A stretch of 64,000 bases of DNA from Cyanidioschyzon merolae (Eukaryota): NCBI GenBank assembly GCA_000091205.1, contig AP006491.2. One strand, written 5' to 3'. Of this stretch, positions 1,380-58,641 are shown piece by piece. Every line of letters starts with the position of its first letter. Within the stretch, counting starts at the first letter, position 1. The notes beneath the pieces are model-generated. The model did no database searches, was not told the origin of the DNA, and saw only the letters and a list, made by a program, of their open reading frames with translations. The position numbers and the translations under genes were made by a program.

Positions 1380-2369
1380 ATGGACGAACGCGACGTTCTT
1401 TGGGTAGGCGTCTGCGCAATGCCGAAGAAAGTCGAGTCTGAGCCGATGCAGCGAATCCTCGCTGCGCTCACCTCGAGCCGCGTTGCGCACTTCGAGCCGA
1501 TGATCTTCGATGCGAAGACGCTGTTTGAGCGGCCGATCCACAAGTGGCCTGTGTGCGATGCGTTAATTGCGTTCCACTCGGAGGGCTTCCCGCTGGAGCG
1601 TGCCATAGCGTACGCGGAACTACGGCGCCCGTACTGCTTGAACGGCCTGCGCGAGCAGCGGATGCTGCTGGACCGGTCCAAGGTGTACGAGGTGCTGGCA
1701 CGTGAGCGAGTGCCAGTCCCGCGGCACATTGTTGTGCGCCACGACGGAGCCGATGTTGGCCGGACGGATACGCGATTTGTCGAGCACGACGACTACATTG
1801 AGTACTGCGGAGAGCGGCTGTTCAAGCCGTTTGTGGAGAAGCCGATTGACGCGGAGGACCACCGGGTATGCATCTACTACGCACGGCCCTTGTACGGGCG
1901 CCGGCGGCTATTTCGGAAGACGGCGAATCAGAGCTCTGTGTTTGAGCCCGGGTGGCGCCGTGTCCGTCGCGAGGGCGCCTTCATATACGAGGAGTTTATC
2001 CCGAGCGAGCACCAGAGCGACATCAAGGTTTACGCTGTTGGGCCGGAGTACGCGTACGCGGAGCGGCGAAAGTCACCCGTGGTGGACGGTATCGTTGAGC
2101 GGAACGCGCACGGCAAGGAGCTGCGATTCCCTGTTGAACTGAGCACCGCGGAGCGCTGCGTGGCGGCGACGATCACGGCGGCTTTCCGGCAGTTTGTGTG
2201 CGGCTTTGATCTCATTCGGCACGCCGACGGCAATGCTTTCTATGTGAACGACGTGAATGGCTTCAGCTTTGTGAAGGGATCCCAGTCCTACTATGAGTCT
2301 TGCGGGCGTATACTGGCGGAGCATCTAGCCCGCGAGTGTGCGCGAAGCGCTGCGGTGGATGGCGAGTGA
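1380..2369 (+). CDS. PPIP5K/Vip1-family diphosphoinositol-pentakisphosphate kinase, ATP-grasp kinase domain only; ORF stops right after the kinase domain
   Basis: 329-aa ORF. VGVCAMPKK, WPVCDALIAFHSEGFPLERAIAYAELRRP, FVEKPIDAEDHRVCIYY, RLFRK, KVYAVGPEYAYAERRKSPVVDG and NGFSFVKGSQSYYESCGRIL align nearly residue-for-residue with PPIP5K kinase domains as recalled. No RHGDRTP histidine acid phosphatase motif in any frame downstream. Confidence 0.8.
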   Translation: MDERDVLWVGVCAMPKKVESEPMQRILAALTSSRVAHFEPMIFDAKTLFERPIHKWPVCDALIAFHSEGFPLERAIAYAELRRPYCLNGLREQRMLLDRSKVYEVLARERVPVPRHIVVRHDGADVGRTDTRFVEHDDYIEYCGERLFKPFVEKPIDAEDHRVCIYYARPLYGRRRLFRKTANQSSVFEPGWRRVRREGAFIYEEFIPSEHQSDIKVYAVGPEYAYAERRKSPVVDGIVERNAHGKELRFPVELSTAERCVAATITAAFRQFVCGFDLIRHADGNAFYVNDVNGFSFVKGSQSYYESCGRILAEHLARECARSAAVDGE

Positions 2370-3304
2370 CCTCGCAGTGCCCAGCGCTGCAGCGCATCGG
2401 ACGGGAGCACGCCCTAACGCCGAGTCGGCTCGAAATGCTGCGTGGGATAGACGATTTCGTATAAAGTTCTCCCAAATCTACGGAAGCGACTCTAGCACGG
2501 ATTGAGGCTTCGAAGCGGCGCGACAGCCGCGGGGAAACGATATCCCGAATGTGTGTTGGGGGCCTCATGCGTTCGGCAAGCCCGTTTTTATGGTGAAAAG
2601 GCGATCATGCGAGACAGCATTCCAAAACAGCTTGTCCAGAATTACTCGGTGGACAGCGCACCATGGACCGGGCACCGCTCCATGAGACTCATCTGTCTTC
2701 TACACCGAGCAACGTCTCGAGCTTGGTGATCCATTCGACCGGCAGCATTGATCCTCTGCAATATGCGTGGTGTAAACCCTGGTCACGATCGTAGCTGCAC
2801 TACTTCGAAGCAGCAGCCGCGTGCACGTTTCGCGCCCGTCTGCAAACATCATCGACAAATCGTGATGTCTGCGCTTGATTGCCACCCATGGCTCCGTGCG
2901 AATGTTGCCTGCCTTGACAGCGCATTTCAATCTGAACGCAGCACATGTTGCGTGCTCGAATCAATTGCTGGTTGAGCACAACTTTGATCAGCCTGTGCGC
3001 CACTGTGAAGCGGACCAGCCGCTTAAAGCACTTCCATTGCCAACTGTCCGGAACTGCATCGACTCGCCACACGCTCACTGCAAGGTTCCAGCGCTTGAAC
3101 CGCGGTATGCGGAGCTTTTGCTCGTCCAGCGGCTTGTGTGGCAGCTTCGTGCTGCATCCTGTAGAGGATGATCGCGGTCGGAATGCTCGAGACGACCCTC
3201 GTGCTGAGGCACTGCGAGCATCACCCAGCGTCCGTTGAGGGCGTCCCTGTGCATTTGCATTGGCACACAGCTCAGACTCGCGAATGACTGTCCGTTTCCG
3301 TGTC

Positions 3305-4006
3305 TTAGAAAAGCAGCTTCTTGCTCTCCTTGCCAGCGGGCCGCTTGCCTTGCATCACATTTTTCACAACACCCATTTCAACAGCAGTTTTTGCCCAATC
3401 GACTGCTAAGTTGTCTGGGCCCATGGCGCGTGCACGTGCCTGTTCCTCACTAAGGCAGGTGAGCACTCCGAAAACAATAGGGACAGCGGTGGTCATCTGC
3501 AGCTGCATGATGGCAGCGCTCGCCTTGTCCGCGATAACGTCGAAGTGGGTTGTCTCTCCCTTGATCAGGCAGCCTAAACAAACGACAGCGTCAACGCGCT
3601 GCGTCTCAATCATGAGCCGCGCCCCAAGCGGTAGTTCAAAAGCACCGGGTACTTCCAACTCCACTATATTTTCCGGGGAGACTTTGCACTCCCGAAGCGT
3701 CCTTTTCGCGCCTTCCAGAAGCGAACCTGTGATCTCCTCGTTCCAGCGCGAGCGAACCAGACCGATGCGGAGGTCGGACCCGTCCAGCGTGTCAGAGAAA
3801 GTGACCCTTTTCGTGGCACTCTGAAGGCCTAGGGCATTGTTGTGCCTTATAGACTCGGTACGGTGAGTGGGTCCTGCTTGGAAGCGCTTGCTACACGCGC
3901 ATCGGTTGCTGTACGCGGTCACCCAGTCGAACTGCGACGTTCTTTGCGAGACCCTACTAGCAAGGTGAGCCCGCCGAGTGATAAACGAAGAACTGAACAC
4001 AAACAT
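3305..4006 (-). CDS. ribH: 6,7-dimethyl-8-ribityllumazine synthase (riboflavin synthase beta subunit) with N-terminal organellar presequence
   Basis: C-terminal 150 aa: LRIGLVRSRWNEEIT, ELEVPGAFELPL, VDAVVCLGCLIKGETTHFDVIADKASAAIMQLQMTTAVPIVFGVLT and EQARARAMG match lumazine synthase. Start placed at internal ATG (MFVFSSSFITRRAHLASR, Phe-rich transit-peptide-like); the ORF in the track extends to 4174. Confidence 0.85.
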   Translation of the reverse strand: MFVFSSSFITRRAHLASRVSQRTSQFDWVTAYSNRCACSKRFQAGPTHRTESIRHNNALGLQSATKRVTFSDTLDGSDLRIGLVRSRWNEEITGSLLEGAKRTLRECKVSPENIVELEVPGAFELPLGARLMIETQRVDAVVCLGCLIKGETTHFDVIADKASAAIMQLQMTTAVPIVFGVLTCLSEEQARARAMGPDNLAVDWAKTAVEMGVVKNVMQGKRPAGKESKKLLF

Positions 4007-5115
4007 TATCCAAGCTCGCCTCTTAACAGTTTCTGCGTAACTAGGGACGCTCTTTTCGGACCACCTCGCTTGTGGACGAGTGCGAGAGCGTTCGGCAGAC
4101 GTCCTCACTGGCGCCGGTGTCGGTCGCTCAGGTGCCAGCTGCGCTGAGCGCCCGATCCAATCAAGCAGGCGCACGGCACAGAAGAAAGGTGACGTTCAGC
4201 AATGCGTCGGCGATTCCAGCACCTCCTCAAACGTGAAAGCGAAGCGCTTGCGCACATAAAAGCATCGATGATGTGTTCCACGTATGCGATAGATGGGCCT
4301 TACGCATACCAAGCGGCGTCAAAGCAAGGATCGTTCGCGTTTACGACTAAACACAGTGGTAAAGTGTCGTAGCCATGAGGCGCAGCTGTCGCCTCCGTGC
4401 GCATTCGTTCCCGCAACGCAACGATGGCGACAGCACACCTACGATAGCAATGCAGGTCTCCATTATCACAGCGCATGGGCTTGTGCAAACTTCACGCCTG
4501 CCCCATGCCGACCTCAGATAGCGCCTGTCTCCTAAGCAGAGCGCTCCACCGAAGCAGCGCACGCTGAACAACACAACAAAGTAGCAGCAACCAGTTCGCG
4601 CCTCAGATACAGTGCCTACCCTACTTTGGCGATATCAACGCAAACGAAGATGCCTGCGCGCGCAAATGCACGGACACACGCACACGGATGCGCCGCAACG
4701 TGTGCCCTCACGCGTGCGCATTGCCGTGCAGCGATGGTGCGTGTCCGATGAGCGCGTGAACGCCGCACGATCCGCGATTCGAATCTACCGGAATGACGTG
4801 CACGCAGCGGTACGCACGCGTGCCGGCTCGATGCGCCTTATTTCTTGGTGATTCGCGAGCGCCCTCGTTCGAGCAGTCGGCACGATGCTCGCCCAGCTGC
4901 ACGCCGATCACTCAAACGAACAGTCAGTGGGGGTTCTGCGCGCGCGCTGCGGCTGCGGCCCCCGAGTGCCATCTCCGAGGCGCAAAGCGCGGCGATCGCT
5001 GCATGCCCGTCCGAGCACCGTGCCGTGTCACGCACATGCGGCGACTGCTGCGCCAACGACATTCAAGAAGCGACTGGAGCAACTGTTCCAGCAGCAGCAG
5101 TAGTTGCAATGCCTA

Positions 5116-5871
5116 TCACTTGTTGCACGCAAAGGTCATATCCGCCTCGACGGCAAGTTCGCCATCGACGTAGCCTCGCCCGCGGCACTTGGCGATGCCA
5201 AAGCGCTTGCGTAGCGCCATCACCTGGCACTCCATCACGAGCACGTCACCCGGACGCACCGGCCGCCGCCAGCGCAGGTTCTCCACCGAGGCAAACAGAA
5301 ACAGCCTCCCAGGCTCGCTGTCTGGACCGCTCAACAGCATAAGGCCGCAGCACTGCGCGAGCGCCTCGAGCTGCAGCACACCAGGCATAATCTTGGCAGA
5401 CGGGAAGTGGCCCTCGAAGAACTGCTCGTTGTACGTGACGTTCTTCACCGCCACGATCCGCTGCTCGGCCGCACACTCCAAAACCTTGTCCACCAGTAGA
5501 AACGGGTAGCGGTGCGGGAGCACGCGCTCAATGGCCTCGGCGTCCAGCACCGCTGCAGGCAGCGCAGAGCGCCGCGACAGCTCCGCTGCGTCCGTGGGCG
5601 TCGACGGCGCCGGCACTGCACTCGTCGCGCTGGGCGCTCCGCCGTTCGCAGCCACCTGCTCGGCGCTGGCGCGTGGCCCGCACCACCGCCGCTGGCGCGG
5701 CTGTGCGCGTACACCGCAGTCAGCCTGGGCAGCGCTCGTCCTCTGGTACGGTCGCAGTAGCAGCACCAGCGGCGGCTGCAGCCTCGCAGTGGCGCCGAGG
5801 CAGACCTCTCGGCAGTTGCGCCTACGAGCGAGCAAGACGCTGTCTGCTCGTCCAGTTGAACAGAGAAACAT
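5116..5871 (-). CDS. fabZ: 3-hydroxyacyl-ACP dehydratase FabZ (type II FAS, organellar) with about 110-aa presequence
   Basis: ERVLPHRYPFLLVDKVLE, VAVKNVTYNEQFFEGHFPSAKIMPGVLQLEALAQ and RPVRPGDVLVMECQV form a hotdog-fold FabZ signature. N-terminus MFLCSTGRADSVLLARRR is transit-peptide-like. Confidence 0.85.
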   Translation of the reverse strand: MFLCSTGRADSVLLARRRNCREVCLGATARLQPPLVLLLRPYQRTSAAQADCGVRAQPRQRRWCGPRASAEQVAANGGAPSATSAVPAPSTPTDAAELSRRSALPAAVLDAEAIERVLPHRYPFLLVDKVLECAAEQRIVAVKNVTYNEQFFEGHFPSAKIMPGVLQLEALAQCCGLMLLSGPDSEPGRLFLFASVENLRWRRPVRPGDVLVMECQVMALRKRFGIAKCRGRGYVDGELAVEADMTFACNK

Positions 5872-6023
5872 GTACGAGGCCTATGTTGGAGCAACACACT
5901 GTATAATCGAGGGTGTTGCGCACAAGCCTAGCGGTGCTCAAATACTGAATACGTGTGCATACCCAAAATCGCAGGCGATAAGTGTCGGTCGATGCGCGTC
6001 ACGCAATACGCGCCATGCGATCT

Positions 6024-6168
6024 GCGCAGTGCGATGTGCGTAGGTCGATACGCATAGTGCGATGTGCGCAGTGCAATGCGTGTAGGTCGATACGCGCAGT
6101 GCGATGCGTGTAGTGCGATGCGTGTAGGTCGATACGCGCAGTGCGATGCGTGTAGTGCGATGCGCTCA
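6024..6168. repeat. Degenerate compound tandem repeat built from cagtgcgatgcgtgt and aggtcgatacgcg motifs
   Basis: The motifs gtgcgatg(c/t)gcgtaggtcgatacgc recur at least 5 times by eye. The 325-aa ORF in the track overlapping it (5999..6976, minus) translates to an Arg/His/Cys-rich low-complexity product. Confidence 0.7.
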
Positions 6169-7098
6169 TGCAGCCTCGACAGCAGAGGCGCTGAACACTG
6201 TCAGCGGCGCTGATACTAGCCTTCGCAATCAACTGCATACCAATGCTGGTCATCAGGAACGATGCGCTGGCTGCTCGCAGCGTCAAGTGCTCCTGGCCGG
6301 CACCGAGCTGCTGGCGAGCATCCGTGCGCGCGCGCAGTCGACCGCCGCGACGCCACCGAGGCCTGCCAATGTCCAAGTTCCAGACGCGCCGCTCAGGAGA
6401 ACGCGGCCTCCAGCAACGTCCGAACCTCCCCTGGGGGCACAGATACGGGACCCCGCGGCACACGCGCCTCGCCGGAAGGCAGGTCCATGCGAGCGCCCAC
6501 CGCGCCACCTCTGGTGACGGATACCGCTCCAGGAACAGGAAGCGATGGGGTTGCGGCACGCGTAGCAGCGCAGCGGATCCATTTTTAGGCTCGTGCTTGT
6601 GAATGCGCTCCCGAGACGCCGACGAGTGCCTCTGAACTGCATGCAGTCGATGTGCTTGCGCGCTGCCAACCTGCTCCCGAGTCGACAGCAACGCCAATCC
6701 TCTGGCTGGAAAGCAGCGCACTCGGGGCGAGGTATTCCAGCGGCAGAAGCGTGTGCCTGCATAGCGCCGTTGCTGCAGGCGCGACACCGCTGCGCCGAAT
6801 CGCCCACTGTGCTGATGCCGGTCCCGCTGCAGTCCTGCGCTTCGAAAAATGCGCCCAGCCTCATCTTTGATGCCGTTCCTCATGAGCGAGTGCGACCAGA
6901 GATAGCACTGCACGTCACCGCAAGAAACATCACTGCATTGGCCTGCTGCACGAAAATCAGCCAAAATCGCGCACAATCCGCGTCGCTACACCATTTGCGG
7001 ACTCCACGCGTGCCTTGGGTTCTGGAAATGTGCATGCTACGCGCCGAGGCATCCAGGTCAGCGCTGGCAAAGGCCTGCGAACCAACCGACAGCCGGTG

Positions 7099-8940
7099 CT
7101 ACAAACGTGGGCGCAGGTCGCTCATGGGCATGCGCTCGCGTTCGTGACGCTTCTCATTCGGTGTCGCGCGCTGCTCGTCATCGCGCACACGTTCTCGCGT
7201 AACCGATGGAGGCGTGGATCGCAGCTCGCCATCACCGTAGTCGACAGCGAACAGCTCCCGCTCCACGAGTGTCGCTCGCCAGGGCATGGGCGCTATGGAC
7301 CACAGGCCAAGCACGCTGCGATCGGCGCGGAGGCCTCGCCCCTGAAGCTCCTCGTGCCGCACAGGCGTCGTGTAACGACCGATCGTAACCAGGAGACCAC
7401 TCCCGTCGGAGAGGCCGTAAACGCCCTGCACCATGGCCTTTCCGTACGTGTGGTCTGGCGCGAAACCCACACTTACGAGCGTAGCTCTGCAATAGTCTCG
7501 AAGAGCGCCCGCAAGGATCTCACTAGCACTCGCAGTTTCATGGTCTATGAGGACGACTAAAGGCAGCTGCTGGGCGACTGCCAGCGCTTGATTCGGTTCC
7601 CGACTCGAGATCGGTATGACGTCGCCATGACTACCTTCAAACAGTGCGACGGGTACGGAACCGCCGAGAAAGAGGCCAGCAAGATCCAGGGCCTCCTCCA
7701 GAGATCCGCCGTGATTCCTCCTCAGGTCCAGCACCAGGCGATCGATCGAATCGACGACGCTGCTCGCATGCGCTACTGATCCGGTCTGGCTAATCCCCAA
7801 AAGATGTGACAAGGCTGCCTCCATCTGAGGCAATGTCGATGCATTGAATTCGTGCACGCGGATGATACCCGTATCCCCGAGACGTTCGTAGTCTACGCTG
7901 TTCTCGAGAGACGATCTCGATGAAATGCGATACTCGCGAACAAGTTCGATCGGTCCGCGACCCCGGATCTGCAGCACGACTTTGCCACCATCAGCTCCCT
8001 GCATAAGCGCCGCGGCTTCAAAGGGTGCAACTCGCCCGCCACGTACATCGACACCGTTGATAGAATCGACGACATCGCCGATCGCGAGGTCGGCCTTGGC
8101 GGCTGGTGTGCCCGCAATCGGAGGGCTCGCAACATACAAGTCACCTTCCGCTACGGGCACTCTTGGGATGACGCCAAGTTCGAGCTGCTCCCGTGAGGCG
8201 CCGGAGTGCGTCGCCCTGCTCACATCGTTATCCGCTGCCCGCAGGAGAAGTCCCAGCCCCGTTGTATCGAAACGCATGAGTTGTGCGAACTTTTCCGGGC
8301 CTAGCATCCGCGTATAACGATCATGCAGCGGCCGAATGAAATACTCCTCGATTCTCTGATGCGCTGTCATGAAATCCGTTGGCGGGAGAGGCTTCAACGC
8401 TGAATCCAGCCAGCTCCGCTGCAAGCGATCACCCTGAATATGGTTCTCCCTAAGAATACCGTATGCTTCGTACACGACGCGCACCGGTGCCGAAACAACT
8501 TTCTCTGGTGGGAGCGCAGAGCTCTCAACAACTCGAGACCAAAACACGAGGGTAACGAAGAGCACACACGCGACGCCTCTCTGGAGATGTCGCCACAGAG
8601 CGAGGTCTGTTCGGCTTTGACTCCAGTTGACTGCGCTGCTCGCGGTCTGCACTGGAGATCGTGCCCCTACGCGACTTTCAGGAGGCGTCCTTCGCTCACA
8701 TAGGCCCAATTGGAAAGCCTTCGCCGTACTTGGGGCGCACTTTTTCCACGAAGCAAACTCCCGTCGCGTAACGCCGCCTAGTGACCGCGGACTCTGGCAA
8801 GGTTTGCTGTGCACGAACCAGCGCGTACTTGTCTTCGTTAGACGAGTGCGCGTGTTGTCTCTCTGCGAACGCAGTCTGACCTTTGTGGTTCCGTCGAGCG
8901 GCCAAACATCGGGAACCGCCGCAAACAGGCCCCCAATCAT
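7099..8940 (-). CDS. ctpA: C-terminal processing peptidase (S41 family; CtpA-like photosystem II D1 processing protease) with bipartite presequence
   Basis: PDZ region GDVVDSINGVDVRG. S41 catalytic region LVVLIDHETASASEILAGALRDY...GKAMVQGVYGLSDGSGLLVTIGRYTTP. N-terminus has a hydrophobic lumen-type signal VACVLFVTLVFWSRVVESSA after a basic presequence. Confidence 0.85.
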   Translation of the reverse strand: MIGGLFAAVPDVWPLDGTTKVRLRSQRDNTRTRLTKTSTRWFVHSKPCQSPRSLGGVTRREFASWKKCAPSTAKAFQLGLCERRTPPESRVGARSPVQTASSAVNWSQSRTDLALWRHLQRGVACVLFVTLVFWSRVVESSALPPEKVVSAPVRVVYEAYGILRENHIQGDRLQRSWLDSALKPLPPTDFMTAHQRIEEYFIRPLHDRYTRMLGPEKFAQLMRFDTTGLGLLLRAADNDVSRATHSGASREQLELGVIPRVPVAEGDLYVASPPIAGTPAAKADLAIGDVVDSINGVDVRGGRVAPFEAAALMQGADGGKVVLQIRGRGPIELVREYRISSRSSLENSVDYERLGDTGIIRVHEFNASTLPQMEAALSHLLGISQTGSVAHASSVVDSIDRLVLDLRRNHGGSLEEALDLAGLFLGGSVPVALFEGSHGDVIPISSREPNQALAVAQQLPLVVLIDHETASASEILAGALRDYCRATLVSVGFAPDHTYGKAMVQGVYGLSDGSGLLVTIGRYTTPVRHEELQGRGLRADRSVLGLWSIAPMPWRATLVERELFAVDYGDGELRSTPPSVTRERVRDDEQRATPNEKRHERERMPMSDLRPRL

Positions 8941-10626
8941 GACCCCAGAGGCTGCGGGACCCTAGCTGCTTCGTGCCCCAGGATGCACGGAGACTCACCC
9001 TGACGATCGAGCGCTGCAGCATCAGGCGCACTGAGCGCGCCTCGGGTCCGTTCCTGCTCCGAGGAACGCTGCGGCCAGATACATCGCTACAGCACACTAG
9101 ATATGTAAAAAACTGTATGTCAGAAGTTCCGCAACTGACTCTTATATTGAGACTCCTGAAGCGTGCGCTCAAGTACCAATGCATCAGAAGCCTCGATGCG
9201 GTTTGTTGCTGGATGAGAGATCCGGCTGAAGAATCGTTGATGGTGAAGGCAATCTCGGGCGCCTGCGCTGTAACAGGACTTGTGCAATTCTTCTTGAGGG
9301 GCAGAAGCGAACGAGCGCCAGCGGAACACGCCACGTGAGTTTCGCTGGACCCTCGGTGCATACCGCTGCGGCCGCTGTTAGGTCAAACTGAATGCGAACC
9401 CGTTGCACCGGCCACGCCCTGAACAGAACCATGGGACGGCACGGTGTTCGCCACTTCTCATTCCGTATGCATCGGACAACGCGCGCGCAGTTGCCAATGA
9501 TATCGATGTCGAGCGCACCTGTCGTGAGCATCCAGGTCCCAGTGCCAGCGTTTCACTCTCGTTTCCGAACCAGCGGAAGGAACCAGAATCGACTCGTCCC
9601 GCTGTTGTCTACGCTGGTGCTTGCTATGTTGGTCAGCTTCGATTGCCACAGCCGGAGGCTGTGCTTGGCTTGACACCGCGCCTCAGCGACAGCGCTGGAT
9701 CACGGATTGCTTCCAGTGCTGTGCTGAATCTTCGATCCAGCGAATCCGCAGCTTGCCGTACGGGCATCCCGTGCATTTGCGCGGGAGCATGGCCTGCACA
9801 CTGCGACCTAAGCTAGGCATTCGCGCAGCCCCGGGGCGCATCACTCGGCATAGAGCGCGTGGCAGCATGAGGCTCTGCGGGATGAAGAGCGCAGTGCGCC
9901 CGCTGTTGCAGTCAGAGATGCAAAAAATTTTCGCAAAACGATAAACGTTTCTCAACCATGGAGGGTAAGGATATCTACCCACGCGCAGACGTCTCCCAGC
10001 CTTTTTTTGGCCGGCCGACTCTTGTTGGCCTCAGTTTCCTTCCAGGCACACCTCGAGCCGGAGAGGCTGCCTCACGTAGTGAGATCGCGTCTGCCCCGCG
10101 CGTCTCGTATTCGGTACCACACATGGTTTGCTATCGATGACGGCGTTGAAGTGTCGGTCGACGAACTCCATGCGTACAGCGACGTTGGTGGAACTCAGCA
10201 TCGGAAGGATACCTAGAACTCGTGTCCTTTTTGTTATTTCAGTCTCGTCTATCTCGTCTATTGTTCTTCTTCGTTACTTGCTTTTCTTTGCCCGACGGTC
10301 GACGAGAACAGCATTTTCCGCTTTTATTTGCCTGGCACTCGGCGATGGCAGGCGCCAGGATCCCCAACGTTAATATCCATACCTTTCCCATAGATTTTTT
10401 TTCATTTTGAAACCATACGCACTGCGAACGCATCTACTGTGAACAGCGAAAGCGCATCGGATGATACGCACCTGGGCGCGGAACAGAACTGAGATGAAAT
10501 GCTTGAGCGAGACCTCCGCGCGCGCGACTCGTAGCTGACGTTTTGAATTCGATTGCCTCGTGGAACGAGATTCGCACGCTGCTCCCTACCATCAACCAGC
10601 ACTCACTACCGAGATAACAGTTAAGA

Positions 10627-11151
10627 ATGCTGCTTTATACCCAACGTGCCCACTTTCTGACGAACAAAGGGTTCCTTTGTGCTAGCACACAGCGCTTGTC
10701 TATGGGGCTGTTGGCGAATAAGAATCGGATTGGTTCAAACAACACCACAAAGACCCAGCTGCACGCACCCGGTCGGGAGAGTCTCCTTCGTAACCTTGGT
10801 TATGTGGCGACCTGGCAGTTTGTTTTGGTCGGGGCAAGTCTCCTGCTTGTGCCGCAACTCTACGCAAAGTGGGCTGGTGGGGCCGCTGCCGGGGAACTCG
10901 GGGCGACGAGGCTCGTCGCAGGAGCGAACTTGACTGCCGCGCTTGTTATGCACAAGCGCACCACTGCGAGCGAGGTTAGCAACGGGTTTGGGGTGCTCGC
11001 GCCTTTCCTCGTCCTGGACGCGTACCAGGTTGTCTCACTTGTTCTCGCACGGGCTACCTTATCTCCGCTGGGATACGTCTTAGGAGGTCTTAAAGTCGCG
11101 GAGGCTGGGGTCGGCATCGCGAACTGGGTTCAGCGTCTCAAGAAAAACTAG
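10627..11151 (+). CDS. Hypothetical Gly/Ala-rich membrane-associated protein, 174 aa
   Basis: ORF in a gene-sized gap preceded by a pyrimidine-rich tract (10221..10300). Hydrophobic stretches WQFVLVGASLLLVP and GFGVLAPFLVL. No family recognised. Confidence 0.25.
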   Translation: MLLYTQRAHFLTNKGFLCASTQRLSMGLLANKNRIGSNNTTKTQLHAPGRESLLRNLGYVATWQFVLVGASLLLVPQLYAKWAGGAAAGELGATRLVAGANLTAALVMHKRTTASEVSNGFGVLAPFLVLDAYQVVSLVLARATLSPLGYVLGGLKVAEAGVGIANWVQRLKKN

Positions 11152-12729
11152 TTGGACAGTATGCCAGTTCGTTTGCGTGCATGTCGCAGATTTCGAATGA
11201 TTTCACGTATTTCAAAGCTAATAGAATTCACTAGAGTAAATGCCGGGAATGCTAGCATTTTCTTCAGTGTTTATACCTGTTCGGTACCGGATCCATCACA
11301 CGGCATGTAGGTCGCTAGAGCCTCTGCCGTGTCAGCGCCACTGACTGGGACGCCTGCGAGGCTGATTTCCATTCGAGGTCGCGCGCCAGTTTTCGCGGAA
11401 ATGCCTTAGCGTTCCCCGGGTGTCTGACATTAGAGGCACTACATAAGGCCCCAGCGGCTTTCACCACTGCATCATCATTGTTTGCTCTGCTCAAGTCGTC
11501 CACCAGCGCGCGAACATGCTTTCATGTTCGTCCTCTGGGGCATGTGGTTTAAGTGCGCCCGCGGATTCAGCGGGATTCGTGCGCACCACAACCAGTGTGT
11601 GAGCGCCGAATCTTCTGGGGCGTTCACGGATGTCCGCGGCAGGCGTCTTTTTCAGGGTCGCCGCCCTATTTGCATGCACGGTACTGTCGTCACGCAGACA
11701 GCGCTCTGCAAAGCAAAGTCATGCTGCAGAGTACAGCGGCCGTCAGACAGTGGCGAACCCCGCGTCCAACAGAGTCAAACGACGAAAAGAACACGATACG
11801 ACGGGTTTCAATCGCGGGGCGCTTCGCTGACTTCCGACGGGTGCTCCACAAGCAACGCCCACAACAGCCAACTCGCGAACGACGCGAGGTCTCTGGGTCC
11901 GGGCACAAGATGCTCGAGATGCGCGGACGCTCTGCTCGGTGGATCGGCGCTCGTGACCATGGAATTTTCCAAACTTTCACTTGTTTCTATTCCAGCTGTG
12001 ATCGCGCTCGACAGAGCGTCCATCGGGAGCGAAAATGCGTGGTTGCATTCAGAGCATTCTGCTACGTTTCAAACAAGCACCTATTTGGACGCTCTCAAGC
12101 CTCCAGCGTCAAAGGAAACCGCGTATCCAGCCCTGATTCGAGTTCGTCCCGAGCACATCACAGTATCCCGTTTTAACATCGAACAACCTCGAGTAACACA
12201 ACCACAAATCCATAAACACCTGTTTCGTACAGACTTTTGGAACGTTTCGAGCACCACGTGTGCATGGACCGGCACAGGAGCACGACTTGCCGATGGCGGT
12301 TCGTACGGTTTTTTTTTTTCCGATGACGAAACGTTTACATTGACCATGTATCGCAGAATTTGGGATGGATAATGGCTTTGGGGAAAGCGTCCATGATGAA
12401 GGACCTACCTTCAAGTTCCATGACCCAGACTCGATTCGAACGATGCATCGGCAGCCTGCGTATGCGCATGGAGGCGGTTCGATCTGAGCGCGCTGCAAGT
12501 CCACCCCCATGGGTGTCCCATCCGAAAAATCTTCTTCGTGGAGACGCATCGTCGTTACGCTCTGCGACCTGACAGCTTACTTTTGGAGACACATTTCATA
12601 ACTTTAAGCTGCGGATCTTTAGAAAAACGTCACGGGCTTTCTTGACAGAACGTATCTTGTCCTGCAACGTGCGCTGGTCGTGCCGGCTAGAGAAGGTCGG
12701 CGCTACTGCACAGCATACGATCAGATCGG

Positions 12730-14169
12730 TTGTTCGCTTGCGCTCCGTTCCTTCGCGTGCACGCTATGGAAACTGGTCCAACACATATGGGCAGAGGCCG
12801 TGCTCGCTGTGCTCCGGGCAACGGCGGAGCGCATGCAGTTCTGTTCGTTCCGGCTAGACACCTGTTGCGCGAGGAAAGAAAAGCACCAACGTCACCAAGA
12901 GTGGCGTGCTCGCGGTACCGCGACAGGAAGCTGCTTCAAATACGCTCCCTGCGTATGGAACAATCAAGCCAGCGACTGCCGAAAGGAAGGCTAGAGAACT
13001 TCTTCGTGCTACTCGGGAAACAGTGCGTGCGGGAGATCCGTGGCACCGTCGAAGCCGTTGCAGCTGCCACGACGCGGCAGGCGAAGACTCCGTCCGCGTC
13101 GCAGGCGCGTCTAGCGGAGCTCGCGATCTCCGACGAGCTCATCGCCAAACGCGAGAGCCTCCGGGAAAGTGCAACGCATTACCTGAAAGCGGCACCATGG
13201 CTTTCGAGAATGACCTATACTCTTTTGTGCCGCTTGATCGAAATGCTCTTTCGCGACAGACCCATCGAACGTTTTTGGTTTCTGGAAATGGTTGCTCGCG
13301 TTCCCTACTTCTCTTTTCTATCAGTGTTGCATTTGTATGAATCGTTGGATCTTGCTCATCTCACGGAGCTTCGGCGCGCTCATTTCATAGAAGAGTGGAA
13401 CGAAATGCACCATTTACTGATTATGCAAGCGCTTGGTGGCGACGGCCGGTGGCTGGACCGCTTCCTCGCATATCACGTGTCTCTCGTGTACTACTGGGCA
13501 CTGGTTCTCCTCTACATGATCGCACCAGCGGTCGCGTACAACTTCAGTGAGCTCTTAGAAAAGCATGCCTACGACACGTACGCGGTGTTCATCGAGCAAA
13601 ATGAGACGCTGCTGCGCACGCTGCCGGCACCTTCGGTTGCCCGAGCGTACTACGAAAGCGGTGAGCGCTTCCGTTTCCGAGCGGACACCATCAATGCAGA
13701 GACGCACGCGTGCGAGGGCCCCCCGGTTGCGACGCTGTTCGACGCTTTCGTGAACATTCGCGATGATGAGGGCGAGCACATCAAAATGATGGAATTCTGC
13801 CAGACGGAAATCATCAGCACTGGACAAGCTTCGGCGACAGGAGACCAAGCCGATCTGTGTGGATCGAGAGCGGCGGAGGCACCAGCACTCGCGGGTCTCC
13901 TGGCGACTTTCTCGACATGCATTCGTTCATCGGAAGATCGCGATCGCTGGAATCGCTGGCAAGCAAGCGCTGAGGAATGGAAACGGAAGCACAGCAGAAC
14001 GCCAGTGCCATTTCTGAAACCATCTGGAGCCGCAAGTGCGCAGCTGACACGCAACTGGAAAGTGCACGCTAACGAGGGGTACGCCCCTATCCCCGAAGCG
14101 ACGGACCGAGGTGGACATGCTCTAGAGAACGGTCATGTGGGGCCAGGAGCGTCGTCTCCGACAGCGTAG
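12730..14169 (+). CDS. PTOX: Plastid terminal oxidase (PTOX/IMMUTANS, di-iron carboxylate quinol oxidase), paralog 1
   Basis: RFWFLEMVARVPYFSFLSVLHLYES, HFIEEWNEMHHLLIM, NFSELLEKHAYDTY and DDEGEHIKMM carry all six Fe-ligating E/H positions of the AOX/PTOX family. Matches PTOX rather than mitochondrial AOX (LET/EEAENERMHL pattern absent). Alternative start at 12955 (MEQSS). Confidence 0.85.
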   Translation: MFACAPFLRVHAMETGPTHMGRGRARCAPGNGGAHAVLFVPARHLLREERKAPTSPRVACSRYRDRKLLQIRSLRMEQSSQRLPKGRLENFFVLLGKQCVREIRGTVEAVAAATTRQAKTPSASQARLAELAISDELIAKRESLRESATHYLKAAPWLSRMTYTLLCRLIEMLFRDRPIERFWFLEMVARVPYFSFLSVLHLYESLDLAHLTELRRAHFIEEWNEMHHLLIMQALGGDGRWLDRFLAYHVSLVYYWALVLLYMIAPAVAYNFSELLEKHAYDTYAVFIEQNETLLRTLPAPSVARAYYESGERFRFRADTINAETHACEGPPVATLFDAFVNIRDDEGEHIKMMEFCQTEIISTGQASATGDQADLCGSRAAEAPALAGLLATFSTCIRSSEDRDRWNRWQASAEEWKRKHSRTPVPFLKPSGAASAQLTRNWKVHANEGYAPIPEATDRGGHALENGHVGPGASSPTA

Positions 14170-15075: not shown

Positions 15076-16476
15076 AACATGATCTTTATCCAAAGCATAC
15101 GTACAAGTCTGTATTCTTCCCGATTCATGAAGAAGGCATGTTCAAATCATGCTTGCTTCAATTTTTTGGATCTTTCCGTTCCGGGACAACTCGCGGGCGC
15201 GGCAATTCGCAGCGCTGGATGAACGAGCAGAAAAACTCGACGTCCTCCAATGACGACTTGTTTGGAAGCTCTTGCCCAAACTTTCCTGAAGTTGTCAGGT
15301 TCTATTACTGACTCATCCCGGGAGACAAATTATCCCCCTTTTGTGGCTATCAATGACAGGAGACTCAACGGCAGCATTCTATCTCTCAAGGGATAGCCAT
15401 CCACACGTTACCATCTTTTCTATTTGACTAAAACGGGTTTTGGACAAGTATTTCAGTCGCCGCAGCAATCGCTTTTGGAAGCGAGTCCATCAACGCTTCG
15501 CTAGCAGGGAGCGGAAACGGAACCGAATTTCTCGACATAATCCCCGGTCCGAATTCTTCCTTCCGGCAAGTGTTTCATCATGGACATCATCGCGCATTAC
15601 TAATTCTTGATCGAACGAAAGCGAATACGCTTGCGTGTGCAGCGGACGGAGAACCCGACAATGTGATCGTCCACAGGAAGCCAGTGATCTTCGGTTTCGG
15701 CACTGGGCACGGAAACGCAAAAGCGCATTCGGGGGATCCTTCTGTACCCGCCAGTGGCATGCATTGACCGATAAAGCATCGCTCCGTGCGCTCCAAGGTG
15801 GCTGTCAACAGAGGAATTCTGGTGGTATTCTAGAACACCTGACCACAGCCGAGTGTCACCGCTGCAAGCGCTTACCCATATTGTGTAAATTGAAGATACA
15901 ACTGGCAAGCCACGCGTACATCGCAGCTTCCGTCTGCGCATCAATAGCATCGACAACAGCCGAAAACAGCAACATCGGGACTCGAACGATGCGATCAACA
16001 GCTCCGACTGCTGACCGAGGAGCGCTAGGGAACGAATAGACCGGCGTATCTATAGCTATAGATAACAGCGAGCAAGCGAGAGGGAGGGAACGGAAAAAGC
16101 TTCAGGAAAAGGACCCCAGTACAGGCGTTGATCACAACTGAAAGAGCGTCCTGCACGCTAGCGTGTACGCCCGTGCTGGAGGACTCGTTCCATTCGACTC
16201 TGAGATCGTTGTTTCGTGCCGCTCCGCACGTGATACACGCAGCACGAATGCCGCCACCACCGCTGATCGGGAAGCGCCACCACAGCCGCCACGCAAACAC
16301 GCATATGAACATCGCGAGGGGCGCTCCCGCGGGCTTCCCCGCGCAACGCTGCCGGACAGGCGGTGACGTGTGTGCGCGCGCAGCCTCGCCCCCGGAGTCG
16401 AGGATTGCCAGAAATCTCCGCGCCTTCCAGGATTTGTTGGGCGTTGTGGAACGTGAGCTTCGTTCGAGAACCGCTC

Positions 16477-17769
16477 ATGACTGGTTTCATTTCGACGCGT
16501 GCGGGTGTATCTTCGACTTGGAGAGAGCCTGGAAGATGGCAGACGATACGCAGTAGTCGTAGTGGCGGCAGGTGTTACTTCAGGTGCCGTCGTCAGTTCC
16601 ATCTCTGGGCGCGCCGCGACGCCAAGGCTCCCGGCAAGTCCGCAGCACGCGAGCCGGTGAGTAACAGTACGGGGGAAGCGAATGCGCTCAAGCCTCCTGT
16701 GCCCTATGGGTCAATGCTGGAGAGGGAACGAAAGGAGCGGCCTGGAAGTGCTGGTATTCTCGGTCTCCGGAACTTTGTGAGAGAGTCGCGAGCAATCGCA
16801 CTTGATTTGTACGATAAACTGCGGGGCATTGATGAGAGTCGACGGCTGCCGGGCGCTCTGGCGCTGACACTGGATGATGCGGCCGTCAATGAACGAGAAA
16901 AACGTCGAGATGAGCTTACCGGGTATCTCTCGAACGCGCCGTGGATCTCCCGCGTGCCCTACGAGATCGCGTGCCGTTTCCTGGACTGGGCCTTTACGGA
17001 TCGTCCTATCGCGCGTTTCTGGTTCCTCGAGACCGTCGCGCGAATGCCGTACTTCTCGTATCTGTCAGTTCTTCATCTTTACGAGACCTTCAACTGGTTG
17101 CACCTTGCGGAACTCCGACGAACGCACTTCGCCGAGGAGTGGAACGAACTGCACCATCTGCTCATTATGAGCGCACTCGGCGGCGATGCCAAGTGGTCGG
17201 ATCGTTTTCTCGCATACCATCTGTCGATCATCTATTATTGGCTACTCGTCGTTATGTACATCGTATCCCCGCGTCTGTCGTACAATTTTAGCGAGCTGCT
17301 GGAGAAGCATGCCGTGGACACATATGAGCAGTTTCTCACAGAAAATGAGCATCGTTTGAAAGCACTTCCAGCACCCGCGATTGCCGTTCGCTACTACGCG
17401 AATGAGGTGGCTTACACATTCCAGGCTTTTGGTGATGAGAATGGATCTGCAGTGGAGACCAGTCGGCCTCCTGTGCAGACGCTGTATGATGCGTTCCTGA
17501 ACATTCGTCTGGATGAGGAGGAACACGTTCGGACAATGGAAGCGTGCCAGAACTACGATCTGGTTGAACGTTTGACTTCATCGCCGTATCTACGTGAACA
17601 GAGCCCGGAAGATGGCGTTCCCGCACATGCGGACAAGCACGCAGAGGAGTCGTCAGCCGACCAGACGGGCAGCCGCGCCGCCTGGAACCGCTGGGCTGAC
17701 GCTGTCAACCAGGCCGGGCGTCGACCCGGACCTGACACGCGCTCTGAAGACGCAGACCAAAAGCCTTGA
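16477..17769 (+). CDS. PTOX: Plastid terminal oxidase (PTOX), paralog 2; tandem duplicate of 12730..14169
   Basis: RFWFLETVARMPYFSYLSVLHLYET, HFAEEWNELHHLLIM, NFSELLEKHAVDTY and LDEEEHVRTM; roughly 65% identical to paralog 1 over the catalytic core by eye. Start placed at MTGFISTRAG (Phe near N-terminus); the ORF in the track opens at 16363. Confidence 0.85.
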   Translation: MTGFISTRAGVSSTWREPGRWQTIRSSRSGGRCYFRCRRQFHLWARRDAKAPGKSAAREPVSNSTGEANALKPPVPYGSMLERERKERPGSAGILGLRNFVRESRAIALDLYDKLRGIDESRRLPGALALTLDDAAVNEREKRRDELTGYLSNAPWISRVPYEIACRFLDWAFTDRPIARFWFLETVARMPYFSYLSVLHLYETFNWLHLAELRRTHFAEEWNELHHLLIMSALGGDAKWSDRFLAYHLSIIYYWLLVVMYIVSPRLSYNFSELLEKHAVDTYEQFLTENEHRLKALPAPAIAVRYYANEVAYTFQAFGDENGSAVETSRPPVQTLYDAFLNIRLDEEEHVRTMEACQNYDLVERLTSSPYLREQSPEDGVPAHADKHAEESSADQTGSRAAWNRWADAVNQAGRRPGPDTRSEDADQKP

Positions 17770-20291: not shown

Positions 20292-21575
20292 CAACATGCT
20301 ATCGTTCATCTCTTTGAAGATCGTTTATTGTGACAGAACGAAGTCTCACGCACTGCACTGATGGTGGACGGCGCTCGCCACGCAGTGCAACGGCGAACGA
20401 CACGGACACGCCGTTCAAGAGTCGAGTTCCACACTGGCCCGACACTCGGTCAGGTTTTCGTGCAGCGTTCACGCGAACTTTGAAAAGCGATATCCGATAA
20501 CGTTGGTAGCGCTCTGAAGTCGCGTGTATTTTGAAGATCGGCGCGTTTGTACCTCGGTGCGCCAAAACGTCGCAGAAAAGCATGCGCTTCTTCGACGCCG
20601 CTGGCGCCTCAGCTGTGCACAACTCTGTCCACGCGTAAGGACGCGAATGAGCGGGCATAAAGAGTGCAGTACAAGCGATCGGGCCGTACTGTCGTAATAC
20701 ATTTGGCCTTGGTTTCGCATGCGTTTCGGGTACGAGAACGTGCCGGTGGTCAGCAACCACTGGATGATGTAGCGTACGCGATCATTGCTCTTTTCCAGGA
20801 TGATCGTGAAGCTTTACGAATATTGCTGGTAAGGATTCGACGCGTGCGCGTTGTTGCGACCATATCCCGGGTACTGGTATGTTGCGTGTGTCGCTCAGGG
20901 ACGGGTTCAGGTGCATGGAAACTTTGCGCATGGTGGAATGTCTTCGCGGATGGGTTGCTTCTAGAGCCAGCAGTGCGATGCGTCCAGTCCGTCCCGAACC
21001 ATACCCCCGTCATCCTTGGTAAAGAAACGTTCCATTTGGGGCGATGTCAGGTCTTTGGGCGCTAATGCGACTGACCGGCGTATGCGACCAGACGGTGGTT
21101 GGCGCTCATGCGTATCGCGCTGGAGCTCGTGTGCGGTACCCGCAGTCTCCAGTTCCCTGCGCTCCATATCGAGATGAAGTGCTTCGCAGCTTCGAGCATG
21201 GTGCAAGAGGTTCGTTTCTCCAATTCAGCCAGGGCCCGAGGTGCTCGTGCTTATTTTGCGCTGAGTTTTCGTCACCACAAGGGTTGCCCTCTGCCCGAGC
21301 TCGACACTGAAACGACACCGGCATGCCTGAGGCGGCTCGCGAGCGCTGCATGGATCAAGCGAGGCGCCGGCCCAGTGCCGTCAAGGTTTACTGCCCTGGC
21401 GGCCGGTGTATGCAGCGTACGCTTGCCGCATATTGCGTGTTGCACGAGTTGCGGTGAAGTCACCGGGAGCCGTCCTTATCGGGTGCGGCTGTGGGTGCTA
21501 CTCGAGCGCACCTGCCAGGGCAAAAACGCTGCCTGCGTGCCCACTTGACGGGAGGCACGGACGGCGACGCTGGCG

Positions 21576-21648
21576 TACGTCGAGCGAGGATCGAACTCGC
21601 GACCTCCTGCGTGTAAGGCAGGCGAAATCACCACTATTCCATCGACGC
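21576..21648 (-). tRNA. tRNA-Val (anticodon UAC), 73 nt, no encoded CCA
   Basis: Minus-strand read GCGTCGA-TG-GAAT-AGTGGTGA-TTTC-G-CCTGC-CTTACAC-GCAGG-AGGTC-GCGAG-TTCGATC-CTCGC-TCGACGT-A. 7-bp acceptor stem (one G-U), D-loop AGTGGTGA, 5-bp anticodon stem, anticodon TAC with U33/A37, T-loop TTCGATC. T-run (plus-strand AAAAA at 21522..21526) downstream on the coding strand. Confidence 0.75.
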
Positions 21649-56836: not shown

Positions 56837-58641
56837 CGCAGATTCGCCAAAGGGTGTCCTCCGTGTTCCACGCCAAACTTGTGCAGCTTCTGCGCGGCTC
56901 TCTTTGTGCAGGAGACCGCTACAGTTGAGAACAGCTTCTCAGTTTCTTTACGAAGGGTCACGTGTCGTCTCTCGGTGCGGTAAAAACCGCTTCTGGTGAC
57001 CGCTCAAGCCAGGGTGACGCCTGTTACCCCTAGCCACGCACTGGGAGCGCTCCGCCGTACCAGGGTGCGCGGTTGGGTTTTCTCGCTCGCAGCAACGTTA
57101 TCGCCACTACCAGAAACGTCGAAACAAAGCGCCACTTGGCGAGCAAAGTAACGAGTGACACCTGTCGTCAGAGACGCTTTTTCGCGCCTCTGTTCACTCG
57201 TTGGGGACAATCGACAGCAACGGTACAGAGCAAGAAAGTTTCGCGTCGATGGAGGAATTTAATATCCACCCGCAGAAGCCTACCAGCGTTCTTTGCCCGG
57301 CCCGCTGTTATCGGTTTCAGCTTATCCTCATAAACTTTGAGCCTGAGGGGCAGCCCCACAAAAACTGACTCGCTTAAGCTCCGCGGGTGTCGTCTTCAGC
57401 ACCCCATATCGTCATATACTGATGACCGCGTTAAAGCCTCGGTTCACGAACTCCATGCGTTTGTTGCCTCTGATGGAACTCTTCAGCGGAGGGATTGCTA
57501 GAACTCGTCCCCTCTGTGTCAATACATGCTCGTCATTGTCCCGCCGTGCAAACACCTTTTCTCGTTTATCTCCCCTGTTCTTCCTCCTCTCCTTCTTGGT
57601 CACTTGCTGTTCTTCGCTCGATAGTCGGCGAGAAGAGGATTTTTCGTTTTTTTTCCAGCACCCGGCAGTGACAGCTCTCCAGGATCCCCGGCATCCATGT
57701 CCATACCATTCCCTTGGATTTTATATTTCTTCTAATGAATGTACTTGGAACGTGTCTGCTATACACCGCGAACACGCATTTGTTTACATGCACCTGGGCT
57801 TGGAACCCAGTCGAGGTGAAATACTAGAACCAGATCGTTTTCCGTAGGTACGGCTCTTGTGCGAGCGTTCCTGCGTCGTCAGCTATATATAAGCGGTTGA
57901 AGCCAAGACCGGCATCCTATTTTTAGGTCACGCGTCTGATCCAGTCATCGAACGCCCGGGACGAGCCTGGCCCCCCGGCTGAGACACCTTGCTTGCTCAC
58001 TGTGTCCGAAAATTCGATGCTGCTAGCTTCCCAACAACTCGGTGAGAAACGTCGACTGTAGCGGGCGCGCTGTGCTTCTACGCTACCGGCAATTGGGGTA
58101 CAACCTACGACCATGGTGTTCACGGTTGGCACTCCAGGTGGAGCGCCTTCCACCGTCAACCAGCAAATAGGTCTCTTCTAATCCGTCTTGGTGCCAGCGC
58201 TTTCCTACAAGGCAACTTGGTATATCCCGCACATGGATTTGCACACGGATCGCCGCCTTCCAACAGCAAGATGTGTATACGTCTGGTACCTTGAAGTCTC
58301 AGCCTGTTTGAGGAACTAACATGTGCCGCAAGCCGCAGCCGATTTGCATCGAGAAAGATCGTCGGCTCTAACCGAGGATCCGAAAGTACGCAATGGACAT
58401 CTGCACCAACTGCAGCATCGACCATACCGCATCATACATCCGAGTATCGCCATCAACCTTCAAAATCTTTCTCATCATAACCACCCCCAGCACCATTCAA
58501 ACTTGCCTTTGGGGATTCATGCCAGTCCGCCCGACAGCATCCGCTGGGCGCCGTCGACGTTGCCGGGGCACGCACGTCCTCGCACCGCTGGCTCGACGCA
58601 AGTTCCATCCAACCAAAACGGGCGTTCCTATTGGTCTGCGT

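Follow-up and report, generated by a model that had tools for sequence, protein, structure and literature searches.

A gene of the red alga Cyanidioschyzon merolae very probably encodes a functional stand-alone inositol pyrophosphate kinase without a built-in phosphatase. It is an uninterrupted open reading frame of 329 codons in the 64-kb stretch of DNA analysed here (the window), at 1380..2369 on the forward strand, with ATG at 1380, TGA at 2367-2369 and a product ending in ...CARSAAVDGE. Sequence and structural comparisons support the view that this gene codes for a full PPIP5K/Vip1-type ATP-grasp kinase domain alone. Its product is an exact match to the C. merolae 10D protein BAM80106.1 (XP_005536392.1, UniProt M1UR79), labelled 'hypothetical protein, conserved' in GenBank and 'ATP-grasp domain-containing protein' in UniProt; BAM80106.1 and M1UR79 should carry a PPIP5K-type kinase name. 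The topoisomerase protein of the window is likewise an exact match to a C. merolae 10D record, on the 810,151-bp chromosome of the kinase gene, and an ABCF open reading frame is placed on the same chromosome by a C. merolae model that is shorter and belongs to the same 90% cluster. The window is thus nuclear DNA of C. merolae.

The kinase-only arrangement is already known from Dictyostelium, and the red-algal case is the new element. Yeast vip1Δ is rescued by the 56-kDa Ppip5k of Dictyostelium discoideum, which has no phosphatase domain at all and, it has been remarked, may do away with the futile cycle (PMC8885430). The preliminary description of the C. merolae locus was correct in proposing a kinase-only PPIP5K gene, which is real, and the arrangement has a published precedent in the Dictyostelium protein (PMC8885430). 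In the literature searched, no paper describing a PPIP5K from C. merolae or another red alga was found. The C. merolae protein resembles Dictyostelium Ppip5k (DDB_G0284617) in that its PPIP5K kinase domain is complete and a histidine-phosphatase domain is lacking. The two differ in length, the D. discoideum homologue being 475 aa with a tail of ~160 aa and the C. merolae protein, at 329 aa, essentially a bare domain. They differ also in the evidence for them, which is sequence and a predicted model for the algal kinase and, for the Dictyostelium protein, function shown by vip1Δ rescue (PMC8885430).

Assignment to the PPIP5K family follows from both domain and structure searches. Pfam finds PPIP5K2_N (PF18086) in the 329-aa protein with an E-value of 1e-31 and 109 bits against a cut-off of 35, covering positions 3-90 of the 90 in the profile, and also matches a RimK-type ATP-grasp domain at aa 200-300. 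Among solved structures the top phmmer match is the kinase domain of human PPIP5K2 (3t7a, E 1.6e-92), in an alignment that spans the whole crystallised domain and pairs residues 4-321 of the C. merolae protein with 6-315 of the 330-residue chain. The corresponding domains of yeast Vip1 and S. pombe Asp1 come next. Identity to the human PPIP5K2 kinase domain is 48% in the pairwise alignment. An end-to-end match of the frame to the PPIP5K/Vip1 kinase domain, followed by a stop, had been claimed from the sequence, and the 3t7a and PF18086 matches bear this out. With the bifunctional PPIP5K/Vip1/Asp1/VIH enzymes (human PPIP5K1/2, yeast Vip1, S. pombe Asp1, plant VIH1/2) the C. merolae kinase shares its active-site residues, 45-50% identity over the kinase domain and the fold (TM 0.88-0.95). 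Unlike them, it has neither the disordered tail nor the C-terminal histidine-acid-phosphatase-like 1-pyrophosphatase domain (PF00328; RHGDRTPK), which is absent from the C. merolae polypeptide that carries the kinase. The coordinates of the features are collected in Table 1.

Table 1. Features of the kinase locus in the window and of the corresponding gene block in related loci.
Feature	Position	Strand	Evidence
Complete CDS, 329 aa, predicted stand-alone PPIP5K/Vip1-type inositol pyrophosphate kinase	1380..2369	+	BAM80106.1 identity; 3t7a match; model; dN/dS
N-terminal alpha/beta subdomain (PF18086), aa 9-98, with predicted substrate-contacting K16/K17 (human K53/K54)	1404..1673	+	Pfam E 1e-31; residue mapping
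Predicted ATP-grasp catalytic core, about aa 99-321	1674..2342	+	Human PPIP5K2 alignment; RimK ATP-grasp Pfam match aa 200-300
Stop codon TGA, polymorphic in nature	2367..2369	+	Alignment to 99%-identical environmental strain (CGA)
Intergenic region between convergent genes, without phosphatase-domain coding potential	2370..3304	.	Frame translations, motif search, tblastn
Conserved gene block	window 1380-8940; L001 (Cyanidium caldarium) 6001-12202; L002 6001-12457		Gene order comparison

An AlphaFold2 model of the 329-aa protein, built on 34 homologues, has a mean pLDDT of 93.5 and a pTM of 0.90. It matches the crystal structures of the PPIP5K2 kinase domain, 3t9b and 3t7a, with TM scores of 0.92 and 0.95 and an rmsd of 1.5 Å, and the Asp1 and Vip1 kinase domains with TM scores of 0.88-0.89. 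ITPK1 and RimK-type enzymes share the ATP-grasp fold (Foldseek E about 1e-13 to 1e-14, TM about 0.6), but are only 13-17% identical to the C. merolae kinase, lack the PPIP5K2_N domain and have a different substrate pocket. The C. merolae protein clearly belongs to neither type.

Human H194, R213, K248, D309 and D321, the catalytic residues binding the metal ions, the phosphates of ATP and the 1-phosphate, are all retained. In the core, K154, E159, H161, R179, K180, D214 and K216 are conserved as the equivalents of human K187, E192, H194, R213, K214, D246 and K248, and R230, R241, R249, D277, D291, N293 and K299 as those of R262, R273, R281, D309, D321, N323 and K329. Towards the N-terminus K16 and K17 correspond to human K53 and K54 in the pairwise alignment, both being kept. 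Human K53 and R262 we take to be phosphate-contacting residues, and K103 a surface capture site. The roles of human K54, K214, R273, R281 and K329 are those indicated by the contacts of Asp1 K43, K224, R285, R293 and K341 (PMC9239264). Five residues of the human enzyme, H194, R213, K248, D309 and D321, are essential by mutagenesis of Asp1 and PPIP5K2 (PMC9239264), and all are present, as H161, R179, K216, D277 and D291. Across the 34 homologues 45 columns are invariant, among them K17, K154, H161, R179, K180, D214 and K216, as well as R230, R241, R249, D277, D291, N293 and K299. Every active-site residue checked against human PPIP5K2 is kept save one: the basic phosphate-contacting residues (K53, K54, K214, R262, R273, R281, K329) are all present, and K103 of the capture site alone differs, being Glu (E68) in C. 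merolae, so that substrate delivery may differ in this enzyme.

The same K103 replacement could be read as a sign that the protein has kept its fold and changed its function, its target being a different substrate or position, such as another isomer of inositol phosphate. Identity to the characterised enzymes is only about 48%, and branch lengths, with a mean distance of 0.91, exceed those of full-length PPIP5Ks (0.77), both of which would fit such a change. It is nonetheless very unlikely, given that the similarly divergent short form of Dictyostelium complements vip1Δ (PMC8885430).

Downstream of the kinase domain, all searches for a phosphatase were negative. The frame ends 8 residues past the end of the kinase-domain match, and the motif RH[GASN][DE]R is absent from all forward frames of 2370-3305, all three of which are full of stops. 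In tblastn searches with 67 PPIP5K phosphatase-domain segments from homologues, the best E-value in 2300-3400 was 6.5 and only chance-level matches were obtained over the whole 64-kb window; 8 longer phosphatase domains were negative on the window and on four to five orthologous loci. These results uphold the earlier statement that no RHGDRTP-type phosphatase motif occurs in any frame of the following 1 kb. With all frames of 2370-3305, the motif search and the 67 and 8 tblastn queries empty, a downstream exon or frameshift was rejected. The next gene is convergent at 3305, as had been noted: the open reading frame 3305..4174 on the reverse strand encodes lumazine synthase (PF00885, E 2.7e-48), after which comes a FabZ-type dehydratase gene (5116..5871, reverse strand). 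Among the genes of the 64-kb window there is no other gene related to inositol phosphate metabolism.

The same gene is found in other Cyanidiophyceae. The orthologue of Cyanidiococcus yangmingshanensis is 331 aa long and 75% identical, that of an environmental relative is also 331 aa long, and that of Cyanidium caldarium (KAK4534138.1) has 374 aa and 60% identity. These proteins (331-374 aa) comprise the kinase domain and a short unconserved tail, with a conserved start and a stop at the equivalent place, and the phosphatase domain is missing from the Cyanidiococcus and Cyanidium orthologues and from the environmental relatives alike. In four further Cyanidiophyceae loci the kinase-only gene is followed by a convergent lumazine synthase gene, with FabZ after it wherever the locus reaches far enough. 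The kinase stop codon and the end of the convergent neighbour are separated by 140 bp in Cyanidium caldarium. As start and stop are conserved among the orthologues and the neighbour is convergent, there is no room for a second domain, and the C. merolae gene appears by these comparisons to be a full-length kinase-only gene of the Dictyostelium type. The order PPIP5K-kinase, lumazine synthase, FabZ, S41 peptidase is common to Cyanidioschyzon, Cyanidiococcus and Cyanidium, at protein identities down to 60%.

Since the stop codon varies in nature, the gene might be thought to be full-length and the stop at 2367 to result from misassembly, a sequencing frameshift or a missed intron. In a 99%-identical environmental contig (L003, JGI hot spring; region 2509-2514), TGA is replaced by CGA (Arg). 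The strain in question, however, reads only 16 more codons before a TAA, giving a protein of 345 aa, and its contig differs from the window CDS by 7 substitutions and no indels. An error of assembly or a frameshift at the stop had been named as a point to check, and none was found; because this independent assembly shows substitutions only in the CDS, misassembly was rejected. There is also no coding similarity downstream in any frame, the convergent neighbour in Cyanidium begins 140 bp past the stop, and the C. merolae genome as a whole contains only 27 introns (PMC4829280). The chance that the stop is an artefact is accordingly negligible, and the earlier view that no plausible intron bridges to a downstream exon is supported by the four Cyanidiophyceae loci, the Cyanidium spacer and the scarcity of introns. 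Both the 329-aa and the 345-aa forms occur in a 90% cluster of 38 near-identical proteins, and since near-identical strains carry either form, the C-terminal tail of the kinase is evidently unconstrained.

The loss of a domain, together with the 'hypothetical protein' label in GenBank, could also suggest a decaying remnant, a non-functional leftover of a full-length gene minus its 3' half. The pattern of substitution argues against this. In comparisons with the 75%-identical orthologues of Cyanidiococcus and the environmental relative, dN/dS of the kinase gene is 0.11-0.12, and against Cyanidium it is 0.20-0.26, values that are approximate because dS, above 0.9, is near saturation. A range of 0.11-0.26 points clearly to purifying selection. 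Moreover, no sampled lineage has a broken reading frame, none of the catalytic residues has been lost and the predicted model is confident and complete, which makes a remnant extremely improbable. Together, the conserved orthologues and gene order, the lack of indels, the dN/dS values and the 27 introns effectively rule out a decaying pseudogene as well as hidden exons, frameshifts and misassembly. The kinase-only state is fixed across the three Cyanidiophyceae genera sampled (Cyanidioschyzon, Cyanidiococcus and Cyanidium) and is no artefact of annotation or assembly.

A further alternative is that of a split gene, in which the phosphatase half is encoded elsewhere in C. merolae and the kinase/phosphatase pair consists of two polypeptides. 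This is considered unlikely. No phosphatase-like sequence was found in the 64-kb window or in stretches of 2-13 kb around four orthologous genes, nor was any paper found linking C. merolae with a histidine acid phosphatase, and Dictyostelium Ppip5k is described as completely lacking the phosphatase domain (PMC8885430). In a scan of metagenome contigs with a phosphatase profile, none of the best 80 of more than 600 stretches came from Cyanidiales-bearing samples, a result that is not evidence of absence.

Canonical PPIP5Ks tie InsP8 levels to cellular phosphate and ATP, partly via their own phosphatase domain. A kinase-only organism would have to set InsP8 otherwise, by the kinetics of the kinase and by hydrolases acting in trans. 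For C. merolae we infer the substrates, products, trans-acting phosphatases and effect on phosphate signalling as follows. By homology, ATP would be held in the ATP-grasp cleft and its gamma-phosphate transferred to the 1-phosphate of InsP6 or 5-InsP7, to yield 1-InsP7 or 1,5-InsP8. The preferred substrate would be 5-InsP7, as for the isolated kinase domain of Asp1, which is active on its own (PMC9239264). In vivo, pho1 is derepressed to a greater degree by the Asp1 kinase domain on its own than by the complete enzyme (PMC9239264). In the complete enzyme, inorganic phosphate raises the net synthesis of IP8 because it counteracts the breakdown of IP8 in the pyrophosphatase domain (PMC9239264). 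With that domain missing, the C. merolae enzyme would itself be unable to run a kinase/phosphatase futile cycle or to hydrolyse its own product, and the input of inorganic phosphate by the Asp1 route would be lost to it. Turnover of the 1-beta-phosphate would then have to rely on other enzymes, hydrolases in trans, of which a Nudix/DIPP type is one possibility. A PPK1-Nudix fusion protein involved in polyphosphate accumulation has been reported in C. merolae (PMC12526157). The organism has two SPX-domain proteins (PMC8717665), which would be the likely readers of the kinase product. C. merolae has a finished, nearly intron-free model genome, a pair of SPX proteins and a polyphosphate system of an unusual PPK1-Nudix kind, and would offer a clean natural 'phosphatase-dead' background in which to ask what the futile cycle adds to phosphate sensing.

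PPIP5Ks without a phosphatase domain, whether by loss or by original absence, are also found in glaucophytes, a heterolobosean and dictyostelids. When 1.84 billion representative proteins were searched exhaustively with HMMER for relatives of the C. merolae kinase, the closest ones outside Cyanidiales proved to be mostly full-length (900-2100 aa), at about 50% identity. The nearest full-length relatives that can be named come from animals, Capsaspora, oomycetes, a streptophyte alga and Platysulcus, and no full-length red-algal PPIP5K surfaced among the relatives found. In neighbour-joining (distance) trees of the kinase domain the Cyanidiales fall inside a group made up wholly of kinase-only proteins, 12 in one tree and then 16. 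Its other members are from the glaucophytes Cyanophora and Gloeochaete, Heterolobosea sp. BB2, several environmental sequences and the dictyostelids Cavenderia, Acytostelium, D. discoideum and D. citrinum. Fungal genome annotations also include short PPIP5K homologues that look kinase-only, in Rhizomucor pusillus (P0399, 352 aa) and Halenospora varia (P0383, 380 aa); these fall outside the short-form group of Cyanidiales, glaucophytes and dictyostelids and are candidate genes or truncated models.

One reading of these trees is that the kinase-only PPIP5Ks of Cyanidiophyceae, glaucophytes, the heterolobosean and dictyostelids represent a single ancient stand-alone lineage and not several independent truncations, a proposal that appears doubtful on the sequence comparisons made. 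Such a lineage could be either an early paralogue or the ancestral form, from before the kinase was fused with a phosphatase. In 81 of 100 bootstrap replicates the sister group next to the Cyanidiales contains kinase-only proteins exclusively. For the whole group, bootstrap values are 22% with 12 proteins and 19% with 16, and the signature columns that set it apart number three and are weak. A profile of seven short forms from outside the Cyanidiales scores four Cyanidiales proteins at 394-417 bits, whilst size-matched full-length profiles give means of 378-399 bits (sd 6-7), an advantage for the short forms of about 17 bits or roughly 3 sd. An 80-member full-length profile scores the Cyanidiales no worse than the short-form profile does, and in a search with the latter short and full-length hits are unseparated, full-length proteins lying level with the dictyostelid short forms. 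All short forms sit on longer branches than the full-length proteins (0.84-0.97 against 0.77), so that long-branch attraction is a live alternative and possibly lies behind their grouping. Were the kinase-only proteins a single ancient lineage, some eukaryotes would always have run inositol-pyrophosphate signalling without a built-in futile cycle, and C. merolae would be a minimal, genetically tractable system for it, with one kinase, two SPX proteins and a bacterial-type PPK1-Nudix polyphosphate system.

Several other features of the window were recorded. A 63-bp tandem repeat (587-748; 2.6 copies, 95% matches) precedes the start codon of the kinase gene by about 630 bp. A 42-bp tandem array with a 14-bp sub-period (6006-6165; 3.8 or 10.7 copies) lies inside a 325-aa open reading frame on the reverse strand (5999..6976), which matches no Pfam family and is unlikely to be a gene. 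In the lumazine synthase (3305-4174) and FabZ (5116-5871) frames, both on the reverse strand, the Pfam domain is preceded by some 115-135 additional residues, which could be organelle-targeting peptides; the mechanical GTG start of lumazine synthase may be too far upstream, other assemblies calling 230-236 aa. Two neighbouring open reading frames on the forward strand (12730-14169 and 16363-17769) share an alternative oxidase (AOX) domain and are suggestive of a tandem duplicate, and an AOX gene also follows the corresponding gene block in Cyanidium caldarium (L001, from 13033). The sole tRNA of the window is a tRNA-Val with anticodon TAC (21575-21648, reverse strand). Finally, the ABCF-type ATPase frame (58393-60567, forward strand) encodes 724 aa from its first ATG against 641 aa in GenBank BAM80128.1; environmental ABCF gene models are 682 or 724 aa long, and the annotated start of BAM80128.1 may thus sit too far downstream.
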